Assembly: GCA_043816785.1 (NCBI GenBank)
Contig: JBDRHP010000100.1
Coordinates: forward strand, 1 to 16,393
From: Candidatus Margulisiibacteriota bacterium
GTDB lineage: Bacteria > Margulisbacteria > WOR-1 > O2-12-FULL-45-9
Reading direction: 5' to 3'
DNA length: 16,393 nt
A program made the position numbers and the translations under genes. Shown here in pieces: positions 2,538 to 15,993 of the stretch. The notes beneath the pieces are model-generated. The model made no database searches. It saw only the letters and a list, made by a program, of their open reading frames with translations, and was not told the origin of the DNA. Positions within the stretch are counted from its first letter, which is position 1; the number at the start of each line of letters is the position of its first letter.

Positions 2538-2984
2538 TTAGCGACCTTTAGGCCCGCGAGGCTTATGCTGATTCATAAGCTTTTTATATTTTTCCCTTTG
2601 TATTGGCGTGAGCAAGGCGCGCAGCTCAAGCAACGCGTCCAGCCGCTGGATCTCCATTTCAACTCGTTGCTGATTAATTTTCCCGATCAGGGCGTGCAGT
2701 TTTGTCCTGTCCGGAGTGTCTTGGTCTATTTCAACCTTAAGCTGTTCCGCCAGCTTTTTCATTTCCGCCCGATGAACTTTCCGCGCTTCTTTCCGTTTCT
2801 CCTCGTTAGCCTTGAGCGCGGCCTGCTGCTCCTTGCTCAAATCCAGCTTTTGAGTGATCATTTCCATTTTTTTCCCAGGATCCAGTTTATTTGCCTTCTC
2901 TCCCCTGCCCCAAAAAGCCAAAGACTGGGAAGCCAGCACCGCAACCAGGAACACGACCACTAAGATCTTTAACATTTTTTTCAT
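2538..2984 (-). CDS. Spy/CpxP/ZraP-family periplasmic protein (chaperone or metal/stress sensor)
   Basis: Signal peptide, all-helical, two LTxxQ-like motifs (LDLSKEQQ, LLTPIQREKY). RBS AAAGGAGGAG at 2991-3000 favours the ATG at 2984 over 2990. Confidence 0.8.
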   Translation of the reverse strand: MKKMLKILVVVFLVAVLASQSLAFWGRGEKANKLDPGKKMEMITQKLDLSKEQQAALKANEEKRKEARKVHRAEMKKLAEQLKVEIDQDTPDRTKLHALIGKINQQRVEMEIQRLDALLELRALLTPIQREKYKKLMNQHKPRGPKGR

Positions 2985-3008
2985 TTTCATCTCCTCCTTT
3001 ACAGTTGA

Positions 3009-3037
3009 TTAGACAATATATTTTTCAAAAAGGTTCC
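3009..3037 (-). promoter_or_regulatory. ECF sigma promoter upstream of Spy/CpxP-like gene
   Basis: GGAACC-N17-GTCTAA, with the same boxes and spacing as the copy at 3819-3847. Matches the RpoE/AlgU-type GAAC...TCTAA consensus. Confidence 0.8.
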
Positions 3038-3040
3038 CTC

Positions 3041-3316
3041 TTAATCTTCCAACACATAAGCCAGCAGGGGCCCATCAAGGCTTTCCTGTTCAAAAACATA
3101 AGACATTAAGATATCGCCATTGCTGGCCTGCTGCGCGGGATAATAGAAGTAGGCCGCAAAAGCCAGCAGCAGCACCGCTACCGCACCCGCCAGGAGGAAT
3201 CTGGCTCGGGGCCGCCGTTGACTGACTTTTTGTTCGATCTGAGATAACAGCCTGTCGTAATCAGCCGGAGCCGCCGGTTCCTTCAATTCATTCAAGAATT
3301 CATTATAAGATATCAT
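3041..3316 (-). CDS. Putative membrane-anchored anti-sigma factor
   Basis: 91 aa with a single TM helix (FLLAGAVAVLLLAFAAYFYY). Overlaps the 3' end of the ECF sigma gene. Confidence 0.7.
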   Translation of the reverse strand: MISYNEFLNELKEPAAPADYDRLLSQIEQKVSQRRPRARFLLAGAVAVLLLAFAAYFYYPAQQASNGDILMSYVFEQESLDGPLLAYVLED

Positions 3317-3797
3317 TATCCTTCAACTCCTTTTTTAATATCTCTCGCGCGCGGGACAGGTTTGACTTGACCGTTCCCACTGGGAGGTTTAAGATCTCTG
3401 AGATCTCCGAGATCTTTCTTTCTTCAACCTCAGCCATGATCAGGAGCATTCTCTGCTGCGGATTAAGCTTCTGGAGCGGCTCGAATGTTTTATCCGGCTC
3501 CTGCGTCTCCGATTGTTCCTCAACTTCGATCAGCCGAAAACTGCCCAAGAGATCTTTTAAGCCGGCGTGGCGTTTTTGTTTCTTTAAGAAATTCAGCGAA
3601 GTATTAACTGTGATCCGGTAGATCCAGGTACTCAGGCTGGAGTCAGCGCGAAACTTGGGTAAAGCTCGATGGATCCTCAAAAAAACTTCCTGAAAAAGGT
3701 CTTCCCGGTCGTGTTGGGAAGAAACATAGCGAGAGATCAGTCTCCAGACTGTTTTATTATGTCCAGCGTAGACTTGATTAAATTCTAATTGTCCCAT
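3303..3797 (-). CDS. ECF-family RNA polymerase sigma factor
   Basis: Region 2 (EDLFQEVFLRI...LSTWIYRITVN) and region 4 (EISEILNLPVGTVKSNLSRAR). GGAG at 3804-3807 favours the ATG at 3797; alternative start 3809. Confidence 0.93.
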   Translation of the reverse strand: MGQLEFNQVYAGHNKTVWRLISRYVSSQHDREDLFQEVFLRIHRALPKFRADSSLSTWIYRITVNTSLNFLKKQKRHAGLKDLLGSFRLIEVEEQSETQEPDKTFEPLQKLNPQQRMLLIMAEVEERKISEISEILNLPVGTVKSNLSRAREILKKELKDNDIL

Positions 3798-3818
3798 CGC
3801 TTGCTCCATAACTATTGG

Positions 3819-3911: not shown

Positions 3912-3941
3912 AAAAAAAGGCCCCGCATTAAAGGGGGCCTT
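3912..3941 (-). terminator. Intrinsic terminator of RRM gene 1
   Basis: AAGGCCCC-loop-GGGGCCTT running into a T7 tract on the minus strand. Confidence 0.85.
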
Positions 3942-3964: not shown

Positions 3965-4252
3965 TTAGAACGCGAAATCTGCGTTCTGTCTTTGTCGTCT
4001 CGGGCTATCGGTCTTGGGCTTGGCTTCATTACAGGTGATCTCGCGCTCGCCCCATTTTTGGCCGCTCATGGCTGCAATGGCTTTTTCAGCGTCCGCGTCT
4101 TCCATGTCAAGAAAACCAAAGCCTCTGGACTTGCCAGAGAACTTATCATTAATTATCCTGGCTGATTGGACCGCGCCGAACTCGGAAAACTTAGCTTCCA
4201 GATCGGCATCAGTCACAGACCAGGGCAAATTGCCTACAAATATGCTTTTCAT
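3965..4252 (-). CDS. RRM (RNP-1) RNA-binding protein 1, Arg-rich tail, 95 aa
   Basis: RNP2 IFVGNL and RNP1 RGFGFLDM. The start at 4252 (MKSIFVGNL, same as the paralog) has AAAGGAG at 4261-4267. Confidence 0.95.
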   Translation of the reverse strand: MKSIFVGNLPWSVTDADLEAKFSEFGAVQSARIINDKFSGKSRGFGFLDMEDADAEKAIAAMSGQKWGEREITCNEAKPKTDSPRRQRQNADFAF

Positions 4253-4276
4253 ATGGTGTGCTCCTTTGTGAAATTT

Positions 4277-4369
4277 TTCTGCGATTAACGGAATGTAGAG
4301 GCCCAACAATGGGGACATCAACACGACTAAGAGGCAGACTCTTAAGTTCTCGATCCATTAACTTCGACC
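4277..4369 (-). ncRNA. Putative structured cis-regulatory 5' leader (copy 1)
   Basis: Blocks shared with 11577-11683: GGTCGAAGTTAATGG, GAGTCTGC, GGCCTC and CCGTTAATCGCAGAA. Predicted pairing is preserved although the stems diverge. Confidence 0.65.
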
Positions 4370-4388
4370 AGCCTGCCGCAGGCAGGCT
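4370..4388. repeat. Short perfect palindrome AGCCTGCC-GCA-GGCAGGCT
   Basis: 8-bp arms and 3-nt loop. Absent from the paralogous leader. Confidence 0.8.
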
Positions 4389-4442
4389 CTTACCTATATG
4401 ATTATCCGAAGTTTAGCAGAGAAATTTCACTTATTCTTAAAC

Positions 4443-9982: not shown

Positions 9983-11186
<1,204 letters not shown>

Positions 11187-11188
<2 letters not shown>

Positions 11189-11222
11189 AAACAAAGCGCC
11201 CGGGTTACCCCAGGCGCTTTTT
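11187..11222. terminator. Bidirectional intrinsic terminator between helicase and RRM gene 2
   Basis: Minus strand GCGCCTGGG-GTAA-CCCGGGCGC flanked by A and T tracts on both sides. Confidence 0.85.
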
Positions 11223-11242: not shown

Positions 11243-11551
11243 TTAGAAGCGGTCAAAATTTCTCTTGCCGCCGCCACCGCTGCCGCCGCGTCCGCCGCCG
11301 CCGCCAGAACCTTTTGGTCTAGCTTCGTTGACAGTTAAATCACGATCGCCCCATTTTTGGCCGTTCATGGCCGCAATGGCTTTTTCAGCATCAGCATCTT
11401 CCATATCAACAAATCCAAATCCGCGGGATTTTCCTGAGAACTTATCAGTTACAATCCTGGCAGACATGACATTGCCGAATTCCCCGAACTTGGACTTTAA
11501 CTCTTCGTCAGTTGCTGACCAAGGCAGGTTGCCTACAAATATGCTTTTCAT
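11243..11551 (-). CDS. RRM RNA-binding protein 2, glycine-rich tail, 102 aa
   Basis: RNP2 IFVGNL, RNP1 RGFGFVDM and a Gly-rich C-terminus. AAGGAG RBS at 11561-11566. Confidence 0.96.
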   Translation of the reverse strand: MKSIFVGNLPWSATDEELKSKFGEFGNVMSARIVTDKFSGKSRGFGFVDMEDADAEKAIAAMNGQKWGDRDLTVNEARPKGSGGGGGRGGSGGGGKRNFDRF

Positions 11552-11576
11552 ATATTATTTCTCCTTGATTTTTTTG

Positions 11577-11683
11577 TTCTGCGATTAACGGGATGTGAGG
11601 CCAATAGAGGCATCAGCATGATCAGGTTGCAGACTCCTTTGATCTCAATGTAACTAATGTAACATCTACCATTAACTTCGACC
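11577..11683 (-). ncRNA. Putative structured cis-regulatory 5' leader (copy 2)
   Basis: Same conserved blocks as 4277-4369. It begins 8 nt downstream of a TTTACT-N17-CATAAT promoter-like motif (11720-11692). Confidence 0.65.
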
Positions 11684-11823
11684 TTGTGTATATTATGATA
11701 CATTTATTAATAAAAGTAAAGGGTTATTTAAAATTTTGCCATCCCCTCCCAATAAACTATTTAATGAGAGCAAGAACACAACCCTCATCAATGCATGAGC
11801 CTTTCTATGCTATAATTAATGTT

Positions 11824-12982: not shown

Positions 12983-15925
12983 CTAATTTTCCTGGCCCAG
13001 CATTTTATTCAATATCTGCAGCGCATTCTCCTGCGTAAGCTTTTCGAGTCTATTGCGTTTCAACATTAACTCCCGCATAAAATTGTGGAACAACTGTGTG
13101 TCTTTGATCACAAAAGTGTTAAAGTCCGTAAGCAAAGCCCGCCGGATGCCGTCGAGCTTCTGCCAGTGCTTTTTTAATGTCTCATAGTGATGCGCGTATT
13201 TGCGGATCGTGACCACAAATTGATAAGTATCATACTGCAAGCCCATGATCTTCTGCATATTGATCTTGAGTTCGCCGCTTCTCTTGTAAGCAATCCCCTC
13301 ATCGATCAAGATCTTAATCTCATCATTGGCCAGCGGCACTTTTCTTAAAACTTTATTGGCAATGATCACATCCCTGGGTAATAAGGCTTCCTCGGAAGGG
13401 GTTAAACTCAAACTATAGTACAAACGATAAGCCGCCCGCTCCCTTGGTTGGATCAAGTCCGTTCGGGCCGGGTTCTGGGTAAAATCATAACAGATCTTAT
13501 AAAGATCAAAATTCTGGCTGTATTTAACACAATCATCTAAGGCATCGTGCGGCGCGGTTAAGACTTTTATCAGATCATTGACCAGCGAACGTTCCTCCAT
13601 TATCAGATCGCCGCTGGAGTGGATCAACTCTGGCCACGGGGTTTTTCCGTCCTGGGTGCTCTGAATGGCGTATTTGCCGAAAGGATGACTGCCCCACTTC
13701 ATCTCGATCACTTCGCCGCTGGGATTTTTTACCAGATCATAATAAGTGTATTCTCTTTCATCTGCCGGACGATCCAGGTCAGCGGCTACCATTGGGGACA
13801 TATCTTTCCAGTTGCCTTTCTGGTCCTGAAAAACCCATTTATCCTTAACCCGCTTGATCAGCCCGCCCATAGGAATGATCGTTGTGTCATGATAAATATT
13901 GGACACATAGTTTTCAACTTTCCTAAAGATGCGATAATCACCCGGCGTGGTTGGATAAGCCATGACTTGTTCAAAGATCGGCTGGCTATCCTTGTCCCGG
14001 CCCTGCAGCTGATAAAATTTTGCCTGCGGCCCGCCGCGGATACGCAAACGGGTAAAGGGCTTATCCTTCACATAGATGATCCAGTCGCCGGAATACGGAT
14101 AAACCGCGACTTGAACCTCCTTGGTTATGGCAAAGTTCTGTTTTAGTTTTTCCAGATCGTCTTGAAAATTAACCAGGTCAGCTAACCCGGGTATGGCGCT
14201 CAAGGCTTCCTCGCTAATGCGTTCCGTATATTTATAAACCTTCATCTGCGCGCCGACCGGCAAAAGGTCATAGAGAAAAACCGCGTTGCGCGGTGAGGCA
14301 TGCAAACAACCATGGCTCTTATAAAGATCGCCCAGGATCTCGTTGAGCAGGATGCCGAAGTTGTAATTGTTTAAACCATCCACCACATTCAAATTTAGCC
14401 CTTTACCCTCTCCCCGGGCCGCCTTTCTGATCCTCTCCAACATAATCGCCTGCTCCCTCTCAGTGAACAGCATTGTTTCATCATCCGGCTTAAAAAAACT
14501 GGAAAATGACAAATCTGTCAGATATTTTGCCTGCTTGGGCGGCGCAGCAGAGTTAAACTCCAAACGGTCATTTAACCAGCCTTCAACAATATTCTGCCGG
14601 TTCTCGAGTGAAAGCACACCCATTTGATCAAAGTCTTTGCGCAAAGCAACCCGCAGCTGCGCAAATTTTTCCCAATCATCCTTAACGCTTTCATACCAGC
14701 CAGCCTGCTTATCAATGACCAGGCTGTTAATTCTTAAATATTGATAAAGGCCTAAAGCCTTTTGTCTGGCAGTTTGATCGCGCGGCAAACGGTTTTCCTG
14801 GTATTCCTGAAAAGCTTTCACTAATCGCTCATCCAACAATTGCTGGTCTTGTGCTGTCAGGTCAAAACCATTAAACAATTTATAGCAGCTGTAAGCTGTC
14901 CTATCCCCCCGGCTGGGGATCTTATTACCTTTGGATTGTTTAAAATCGTAGAGCTCTTTATAAAAGGAATAATTATCGTTTTGTTTAACTACCGCATCAA
15001 GGTCATCGGTTGAGGCTAAAGTAAAAAGATGGACCAGGTCCTTGACCAAAATGATTTGCTCATAGACCAGCTCGCCCGCTGCATAACCCATTTCTGGATA
15101 ATGATTTTTGCCGTCTTTGGTCCAGAGCAGCACATATTTGCCAAAATCATGGCCAGCGTAGCGCGCGGCAACAACCTGGCCTTTCTGGTCAACATTAATA
15201 TCAAAATAATTGTAAATGCGCTGCTCATCTTTGCTGGCCAGATCAGCAATCACATTATCAGGCAGTTTGTACCACTTGCCATTCTTCTGGTATGACCAGC
15301 TGCCTTCGATCTTCTTGATCCAGGAGCCAAAAGGCACGATCGTATTCTTATAATAAGCGCTGCTAAGATAATGGTCCGTAACTCTTAAAACTTTATACGC
15401 GCCCGGATCAGTGGGCGTTGACAACATAAAATCCCAGGAGATGGCCCCATTCTTCCTAACATCATAGGCCATGAGAAAATTATACGGCGGCCCGGCCAGA
15501 GCTTTGACTTTGGCATAAGGATAGCCATTAACCATAATAAAAAGCAGATCAAGCGAAGGATAAAAGACTATTTCAGTCTTATAGCTCTTAAACATCTGCG
15601 CGTGTTTTGTGATGTCAGCCTGCGATTTAGTCATGTCGCTCAAATATTCGATCTTGTTAACTGGAAAGGACGGATCACCTTCTTTAAGTTCATATTTCTT
15701 GATTGTTAAAGGAATGCCCGGCGGGATAGTTTTATATAACAAATAGATATCCGTGGGCGTAAAGTGTAAACAGCCATGGCTGTCGTAAAGGTATCCCAGA
15801 GTCTTATCAAACCACTTGACCCAGTTGGTCGAATTAATGAGTTTTAGGCTTTCGTAGGTGTCTTCGGCCAGGCTGCCTGAAACCAGCAAAAGCAAACAGG
15901 TCAAAGCTAACAAAAACTTCTTCAT
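12983..15925 (-). CDS. Large secreted protein with two L,D-transpeptidase (YkuD)-like repeats in permuted order
   Basis: Signal peptide. Two SHGCLH motifs (15770-15781 and 14306-14317), two PTxPGxY motifs and LIHSSG, with a repeat period of 488 aa. Start at 15925 or 15931. Confidence 0.75.
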   Translation of the reverse strand: MKKFLLALTCLLLLVSGSLAEDTYESLKLINSTNWVKWFDKTLGYLYDSHGCLHFTPTDIYLLYKTIPPGIPLTIKKYELKEGDPSFPVNKIEYLSDMTKSQADITKHAQMFKSYKTEIVFYPSLDLLFIMVNGYPYAKVKALAGPPYNFLMAYDVRKNGAISWDFMLSTPTDPGAYKVLRVTDHYLSSAYYKNTIVPFGSWIKKIEGSWSYQKNGKWYKLPDNVIADLASKDEQRIYNYFDINVDQKGQVVAARYAGHDFGKYVLLWTKDGKNHYPEMGYAAGELVYEQIILVKDLVHLFTLASTDDLDAVVKQNDNYSFYKELYDFKQSKGNKIPSRGDRTAYSCYKLFNGFDLTAQDQQLLDERLVKAFQEYQENRLPRDQTARQKALGLYQYLRINSLVIDKQAGWYESVKDDWEKFAQLRVALRKDFDQMGVLSLENRQNIVEGWLNDRLEFNSAAPPKQAKYLTDLSFSSFFKPDDETMLFTEREQAIMLERIRKAARGEGKGLNLNVVDGLNNYNFGILLNEILGDLYKSHGCLHASPRNAVFLYDLLPVGAQMKVYKYTERISEEALSAIPGLADLVNFQDDLEKLKQNFAITKEVQVAVYPYSGDWIIYVKDKPFTRLRIRGGPQAKFYQLQGRDKDSQPIFEQVMAYPTTPGDYRIFRKVENYVSNIYHDTTIIPMGGLIKRVKDKWVFQDQKGNWKDMSPMVAADLDRPADEREYTYYDLVKNPSGEVIEMKWGSHPFGKYAIQSTQDGKTPWPELIHSSGDLIMEERSLVNDLIKVLTAPHDALDDCVKYSQNFDLYKICYDFTQNPARTDLIQPRERAAYRLYYSLSLTPSEEALLPRDVIIANKVLRKVPLANDEIKILIDEGIAYKRSGELKINMQKIMGLQYDTYQFVVTIRKYAHHYETLKKHWQKLDGIRRALLTDFNTFVIKDTQLFHNFMRELMLKRNRLEKLTQENALQILNKMLGQEN

Positions 15926-15993
15926 AGTCATAATTTTACAACTTTACTAGAGCAATTGCTATATGCTATACTTCGCCCACGGAGGTAAACATC

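Follow-up and report, generated by a model that had tools for sequence, protein, structure and literature searches.

The RNA leader that precedes RRM genes in the bacterial class WOR-1/Saganbacteria is a real and new structured leader family and a member of no Rfam family. Two copies were found in the window (the whole stretch of DNA that was analysed, 16,393 nt of contig JBDRHP010000100.1 from a Candidatus Margulisiibacteriota bacterium), each upstream of an RRM gene on the minus strand, and a third RRM gene in the same 1.53-Mb genome is preceded by a third copy of the element. A preliminary description of the window had put forward a new cis-acting structured 5' UTR of RRM genes, which is supported by covariation and by an exclusively RRM-linked context across the WOR-1 class. 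The features of the two loci, from promoter to terminator, were as follows:

4401–4430 (-): predicted sigma-70 promoter of RRM gene 1, -35 GTGAAA and -10 GATAAT (consensus scan 9/12, prediction only)
4371–4387 (-): degenerate palindromic repeat, copy 1 only, between promoter and GUCGA and outside the conserved element
4364–4368 (-): GUCGA box of copy 1, predicted single-stranded, the most conserved piece
4355–4362 (-): P1 5' arm of copy 1 (sequence comparison and pairing counts)
4325–4349 (-): P2 hairpin of copy 1, loop CUGC at 4337-4334 (single-sequence fold)
4293–4324 (-): P3 of copy 1, an irregular hairpin (single-sequence fold)
4284–4291 (-): P1 3' arm of copy 1 (sequence comparison and pairing counts)
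4279–4282 (-): GCAG of copy 1, partner of the P2 loop, with a conserved A run 3' of it (pairing counts)
4261–4266 (-): Shine-Dalgarno AAGGAG of copy 1 (sequence)
3965–4252 (-): RRM gene 1, 95 aa, single RRM_1 domain (Pfam PF00076, E 2.8e-20)
3912–3941 (-): terminator-like hairpin and U run 3' of RRM gene 1 (by eye)
11692–11720 (-): predicted sigma-70 promoter of RRM gene 2, -35 TTTACT and -10 CATAAT (consensus scan, prediction only)
11678–11682 (-): GUCGA box of copy 2 (sequence comparison)
11669–11676 (-): P1 5' arm of copy 2 (sequence comparison)
11647–11667 (-): extra hairpin P2a of copy 2, optional, present in a minority of homologues
11620–11644 (-): P2 hairpin of copy 2, loop CUGC at 11632-11629 (single-sequence fold)
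11593–11619 (-): P3 of copy 2 (single-sequence fold)
11584–11591 (-): P1 3' arm of copy 2 (sequence comparison)
11579–11582 (-): GCAG of copy 2, partner of the P2 loop (pairing counts)
11561–11566 (-): Shine-Dalgarno AAGGAG of copy 2 (sequence)
11243–11551 (-): RRM gene 2, 102 aa, RRM_1 domain and glycine-rich tail (PF00076, E 9.1e-22; ORF list)
11183–11220 (-): intrinsic-terminator-like site 3' of RRM gene 2

The six coordinates quoted in the preliminary description were all read back correctly from the sequence for both copies. The shared non-coding blocks it had noted were confirmed, the 5' and 3' 15-mers of copies 1 and 2 being identical at 15/15 positions each, against agreement at only 12/25 four-fold sites of the two genes. 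Three occurrences of the 3' 15-mer were found in the 1.53-Mb genome, all preceding RRM genes. Stems P1, P2 and P3 were all present, as proposed, in single-sequence folds of both copies. Folding energies were unremarkable (z from -0.57 to +0.59 versus shuffles), and because stability is no greater than that of shuffled sequences, support for the fold comes from covariation and not from energy. The most conserved piece, GUCGA (4368-4364 and 11682-11678), was absent from the earlier description. Neither copy had been assigned to a named family, and indeed Rfam gave no match at either copy (E up to 10) and none at 20 related loci.

Other genes of the window were also recorded. Directly downstream of RRM gene 1, positions 2538-3809 (-) carry genes for an ECF sigma factor, a small membrane protein and a Spy/CpxP-like protein (LTXXQ, Metal_resist), and an efflux cluster lies downstream of these. 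A DEAD-box helicase gene (9983-11188, +), a possible cold-related neighbour, converges on RRM gene 2 and is divergent from a pseudouridine synthase gene 38 nt away. Positions 12983-15931 (-) encode a protein of 982 aa; its halves are internally repeated, and its only match, to YkuD (L,D-transpeptidase), is weak. A search of solved structures retrieved generic RRMs only. The palindromic repeat of the copy 1 leader is a degenerate instance of a GC-rich short palindrome (CCTGCC...GGCAGG type) with 36 pattern matches genome-wide, and palindrome-like inserts were also seen in two homologous leaders (L018 and the P3 loop of L072).

For the comparison across the lineage, 137 RRM gene starts were taken from the best of 256 matches (30 loci and 100 regions); one (other class, miscalled start) was dropped, leaving 136 leaders, and a covariance model was built from 89 of them. 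The model gave 100 matches in 58/65 genomes of the class; in 99 of these an RRM start follows 13-26 nt after the end of the match, and the remaining one is cut by a contig end. Not a single match preceded a non-RRM gene in 146 genomes (65 of the class and 81 other), and the 81 genomes from other classes of the phylum had none at all. Since most matches were training sequences, these figures speak for exclusivity of gene context and not for independent recovery. RRM genes themselves were present in 65/65 class genomes. In a separate pattern search an RRM gene lay downstream in 40/66 loci, one more true copy was situated at a contig end, and the remaining 25/66 looked like chance. The RRM-linked matches, where named, belonged to WOR-1, Saganbacteria or Margulisiibacteriota, plus one Omnitrophota; Chlorobi was not among the names.

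Outside the class, the element was not found at 30 RRM loci of other classes, nor was there any model match in samples of 150 genomes each around genomes G146 and G148. The 151 genomes from the phylum of a Sericytochromatia-labelled genome (G147) contained no true match, their single match being a chance one in a coding frame. These out-of-class searches were samples with strict filters, covering 25-26 candidates per genome. RRM leaders from the phylum sample around G146 (L358, L368, L374, L375, L378 and L393) are long, carry repeated GGUUU words and have a terminator-like hairpin ahead of the ribosome-binding site. One of them (L358, about 1320-1500, +) was alone among 50 in having GUCG and a P1-like pair closing beside the Shine-Dalgarno (SD) sequence; profile searches did not link it to the WOR-1 family.

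From 5' to 3' the element is composed of GUCGA, two or three letters, the P1 5' arm, the optional P2a, P2 with its CUGC loop, the irregular P3, the P1 3' arm and, after 2-3 further letters, GCAG with an A run behind it; the SD comes next. The P1 consensus is UUAAUGG pairing with CCRUUAA. The predicted fold is a closed junction of several stems, with the CUGC loop pairing to GCAG just 3' of P1. In a plain MAFFT alignment P1 was 95% paired and CUGC/GCAG 98%, slid controls being far lower. The model alignment (96 rows) had been made without fitting the long-range helix, and here the four CUGC/GCAG pairs held in 96, 96, 96 and 95 rows, the sole miss being a misaligned row. The last pair changed from C-G to U-A in 8 rows and to U-G in 1; on the gene tree (short alignment, many weak branches) its loop letter changed 4 times and the partner 5 times, with the C-G to U-A double change falling in four places (L071, L073, L100 and the family-f7 clade). 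The first pair changed from C-G to U-G in 3 rows and to U-A in 2 rows (one event). Covariation among homologues had been set beforehand as a test of the structure, and compensatory changes were seen in both P1 and CUGC/GCAG. A metagenome scan, the pattern of which left the loop out, supplied 42 distinct new RRM-linked copies as a held-out set: a complementary loop tetramer was present at the right distance in 42/42 of these, versus 1/15 chance matches.

Two details of the long-range helix differed from the preliminary description. Of the proposed UCUGC/GCAGA pairing, the 4-bp CUGC/GCAG core is conserved, but the fifth U-A pair was found in only 64/96 rows and copy 3 reads ACUGC, and a five-base helix was rejected on this count. 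The pseudoknot had been placed about 10 nt upstream of the ribosome-binding site; its GCAG strand actually stops 12-15 nt upstream of the SD's GGAG in 83/93 leaders, a distance that, together with an A run well above background, would set the knot against the upstream border of the region where the ribosome loads. Judged by per-sequence stability, P2 surpassed shuffles in 86/97 leaders and P3 in 92/97; both had double changes on the fitted alignment and were 72-76% paired there, in a variable register. RNAalifold applied to plain alignments recovered CUGC/GCAG only, or P1 only, and not P2 or P3. P1 was within the single-sequence optimum fold in only 49/89 leaders. At 37 °C it dominated in 52/93, and a nested alternative (CUGC/GCAG formed, P1 open) in 16/93, as calculated by a program that is blind to pseudoknots. 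As read from the sequences, covariation fits CUGC/GCAG pairing alongside P1 (a pseudoknot) as well as replacing it (a nested helix); the conserved hairpin around CUGC would favour the pseudoknot. Pairing of GUCGA with P3 by invasion was also considered for the main type and rejected, being no better than shuffles (46/93 below the control mean). In one subfamily the P3 5' strand carries a second GUCGA (14/101) or a GUUGA (17/101), a possible second site that is inherited and does not occur in other subfamilies.

Exact GUCGA was present in 126/136 leaders: 97/99 of the full type (L108 classed by hand), 14/15 terminator-type, 7/8 bare-P1 and 2/2 without P2, as well as 6/12 otherwise unstructured or cut leaders (two of these precede divergent paralogs). 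Leaders with GUCGA and no P1 were L037, L094, L097, L118, L132 and L027 (1144, -), and some GUCGA-only leaders have just about 25-30 nt from box to start codon. P1 was kept without the pseudoknot in 25/136 leaders (15 terminator-type, 8 bare-P1, 2 without P2). The distance from the best -10 box to GUCGA, as scored with our own promoter heuristic, ranged from 3 to 37 nt, peaked at 6 (26/134) and was 6 or more in 129/134. At the 6-nt spacing the G of GUCGA is the predicted first base of the message, and the box is predicted to lie at or just after the transcription start. Because the spacing from the -10 box varies, GUCGA appears tied to P1 and not to the promoter; the palindromic insert that separates the copy 1 box from its promoter likewise indicates that the box follows P1.

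In all 15/15 leaders of families f3/f4 (L091, L102, L109, L111, L112, L117, L119, L121 and L124-L130), a hairpin of -8.9 to -16.2 kcal/mol, with conserved arms CCAAG/CUUGG and a U-rich tail, lies inside the GUCGA-P1 core, and CUGC/GCAG is gone. The terminator had a predicted probability of 0.99 or more at 37 °C in 13/15 of these. The f3/f4 variant is a candidate attenuator, albeit without an evident RNA antiterminator: RNAalifold suggested GUCGA in this role, a suggestion rejected for want of any double change and in view of the same terminator probabilities.

What can be read directly from the alignments is the position of the element, its presence across paralogs, the P1 and CUGC/GCAG pairings and the separate loss of parts. 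The explanation we favour, to which we give roughly an even chance, is that the leader is a shared feedback operator set on a cold-shock-type leader, through which RRM proteins restrain their own genes. It is favoured because the box is common to all paralogs and stands before no other gene, the pattern that cross-feedback would predict. The weakly stable fold would close, more so in the cold, while the A run and SD stay open, leaving the message stable and translated; RRM protein, once plentiful, would bind the exposed GUCGA-P1 end and either loosen the fold or block ribosome loading 12-15 nt downstream, so that the output of all paralogs would be lowered. In f3/f4, where the GUCGA-P1 core is combined with an intrinsic terminator, output would be set by read-through. 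RRM feedback and a cold response would both fit the gene context, and the RRM proteins are likely this lineage's substitute for cold-shock proteins. Against the feedback operator, protein feedback alone leaves unexplained a 4-bp tertiary pairing kept in 99/136 leaders. The variable P2/P3 register, a P1 predicted as optimal in only 49/89 leaders and a nested fold predicted to dominate in 16/93 also count against it. Both the sign of the effect and the factor that binds are proposed from work on other phyla, the leaders of which gave no match to the WOR-1 model.

Cyanobacterial rbpA1/rbp1 genes encode single-RRM, often glycine-tailed proteins and are cold-regulated through their 5' UTRs. The WOR-1 genes resemble them as single-RRM genes with a 5' UTR for which a cold role may be supposed by analogy. 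For another cyanobacterial protein, Rbp3, UUNGN sites were predicted and one was confirmed by mutation (PMC12232666). In Bacteroides, as described in the relevant sections of a preprint (PMC13370968), the RRM-1 paralogs rbpA/B/C are non-canonical cold-shock proteins with 5' UTRs of 122-155 nt, a function in the cold, and redundant negative auto- and cross-regulation that acts partly through the 5' UTR, the contribution of which is modest; RbpB was reported to bind its own mRNA (PMC11697453). The Bacteroides and WOR-1 genomes alike carry several single-RRM paralogs, but the former belong to another phylum and their leaders are comparable by description, being presented in those sections of PMC13370968 without structure or motif. 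The 5' UTR of E. coli cspA unites a cold box, feedback and a pseudoknot, and shares with the WOR-1 leader its length ahead of an RNA-chaperone gene, a conserved short 5' box and the pseudoknot, as far as the pertinent parts of PMC4496569 describe it; GUCGA would be the positional analogue of the cold box. Feedback at cspA is exerted by the encoded protein (same parts of PMC4496569), whereas for the WOR-1 leader this is suggested by analogy. The two also differ in that cspA encodes a cold-shock domain and not an RRM, its Rfam model found no match here, and it hides the SD through pairing of UTR with coding sequence (again in those parts of PMC4496569), a pairing that is not selected in WOR-1 leaders. 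We infer by analogy that the WOR-1 leader may work like the cspA and Bacteroides rbp leaders. The Chlorobi-RRM motif (RF01697) is likewise a candidate cis-regulatory structured RNA at RRM genes, and its drawing in PMC2864571 marks a terminator, like the f3/f4 variant; however, the rows given in that source differ in sequence, lineage and topology and have neither the GUCGA-P1 closure nor CUGC/GCAG, and the RF01697 model was unmatched in the window (E up to 10) and in 20 related loci (E up to 1).

The strongest competitor, with about one chance in four, is a cold sensor or mRNA stabiliser independent of protein: the AU-rich, weak P1 would form together with the pseudoknot in the cold alone, and the knotted fold, with GUCGA as part of it, would protect the message or ease ribosome loading. 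The fold is indeed marginally stable; mean predicted P1 probability is 0.62 at 10 °C and declines to 0.45 at 50 °C; cold-shock-domain proteins are nearly absent from the class (1/65 genomes, 1/37 high-quality genomes); and E. coli cspA mRNA provides a pseudoknot-stabilised cold switch (in the parts of PMC4496569 on the switch). The predicted temperature effect is gradual, however, and GUCGA is kept where the fold is gone. The cold thermosensor suggested in the preliminary description found no backing in its classical SD-hiding form, as no conserved anti-SD helix was detected: predicted SD partners were mostly early codons, no better than under synonymous randomisation, and real sequences left the SD more open (0.44 unpaired) than their synonymously randomised versions (0.37). 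Nor did predicted SD pairing fall in the cold, in a prediction that ignores pseudoknots.

A smaller probability, and a rather low one, attaches to another host factor reading the leader, such as ribosomal protein S1, a DEAD-box helicase, a 5'-end-dependent nuclease or a transcription elongation factor. Enzymes of 5'-end decay act at the message 5' end, and GUCGA is often at the predicted +1. The A run ahead of the SD, where A reaches 74-91% against a background of 36-42% at equal offsets, and the fixed distance to the SD would suit such a factor, and the terminator variant requires some read-through factor. A general factor should nevertheless have other targets with the same motif, and the full model found none in 146 genomes; a crude promoter-plus-GUCGA scan of this genome gave no enrichment either.

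A rather low probability, about that of a host factor, also goes to a self-contained tertiary switch, in which a single pocket built from GUCGA, the P1 base and CUGC/GCAG would respond directly to cold or to a small ligand by changing from the knotted fold to the nested, P1-open fold or back. An orphan riboswitch, whose pocket of GUCGA, the P1 base and the pseudoknot would bind a small molecule or an ion, is unlikely. Riboswitches commonly combine a junction with a pseudoknot, a topology that the leader shares with many of them, and the near-invariant unpaired GUCGA, the post-P1 linker and the A run would cluster around the pseudoknot helix. This idea of the preliminary description fares poorly against the separate loss of parts in 25 leaders while GUCGA stays, the RRM gene as sole linked gene with no metabolic gene among the neighbours so linked, and the failure of any known aptamer model in Rfam to match either copy or 20 related loci. 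No expression platform with competing helices was seen in the main type, and f3/f4 have a terminator but no general antiterminator.

Least probable is that the conserved letters act at the DNA level, as an operator or part of a promoter, or encode a short upstream frame that starts at an AUG inside P1: P1 letters are highly conserved with few double changes, and the frame is open through to the gene start in 27/123 leaders vs 11.6 expected by shuffling, but P1 and the pseudoknot show compensatory and G-U changes, the distances from arm to arm and to the promoter are highly variable, and the upstream frame was rejected as not conserved (AUG in all three frames, 33/31/43; lengths from 1 codon; 16/123 without AUG).

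A literature search found this RNA undescribed and no RNA motif described for Margulisbacteria; the main text of PMC5737381 is without the term 'RRM', and its supplement and subscription papers may bear on novelty. The family is a ready Rfam-type entry for the WOR-1 lineage. If the tertiary switch were true, it would be a new sensor class for an RNA chaperone gene, for which natural deletion and terminator-swap versions exist. The feedback operator touches on questions raised in the sections of PMC13370968 cited above, namely self-control by bacterial single-RRM proteins, the sequence they recognise and temperature sensing by the 5' UTR. To these the family brings a fold backed by covariation and a candidate binding site of five letters. 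Its natural variants form a series (full knot, no P2, bare P1, GUCGA only, terminator swap) open to testing in vitro and in laboratory reporter strains, even though the hosts are uncultured.
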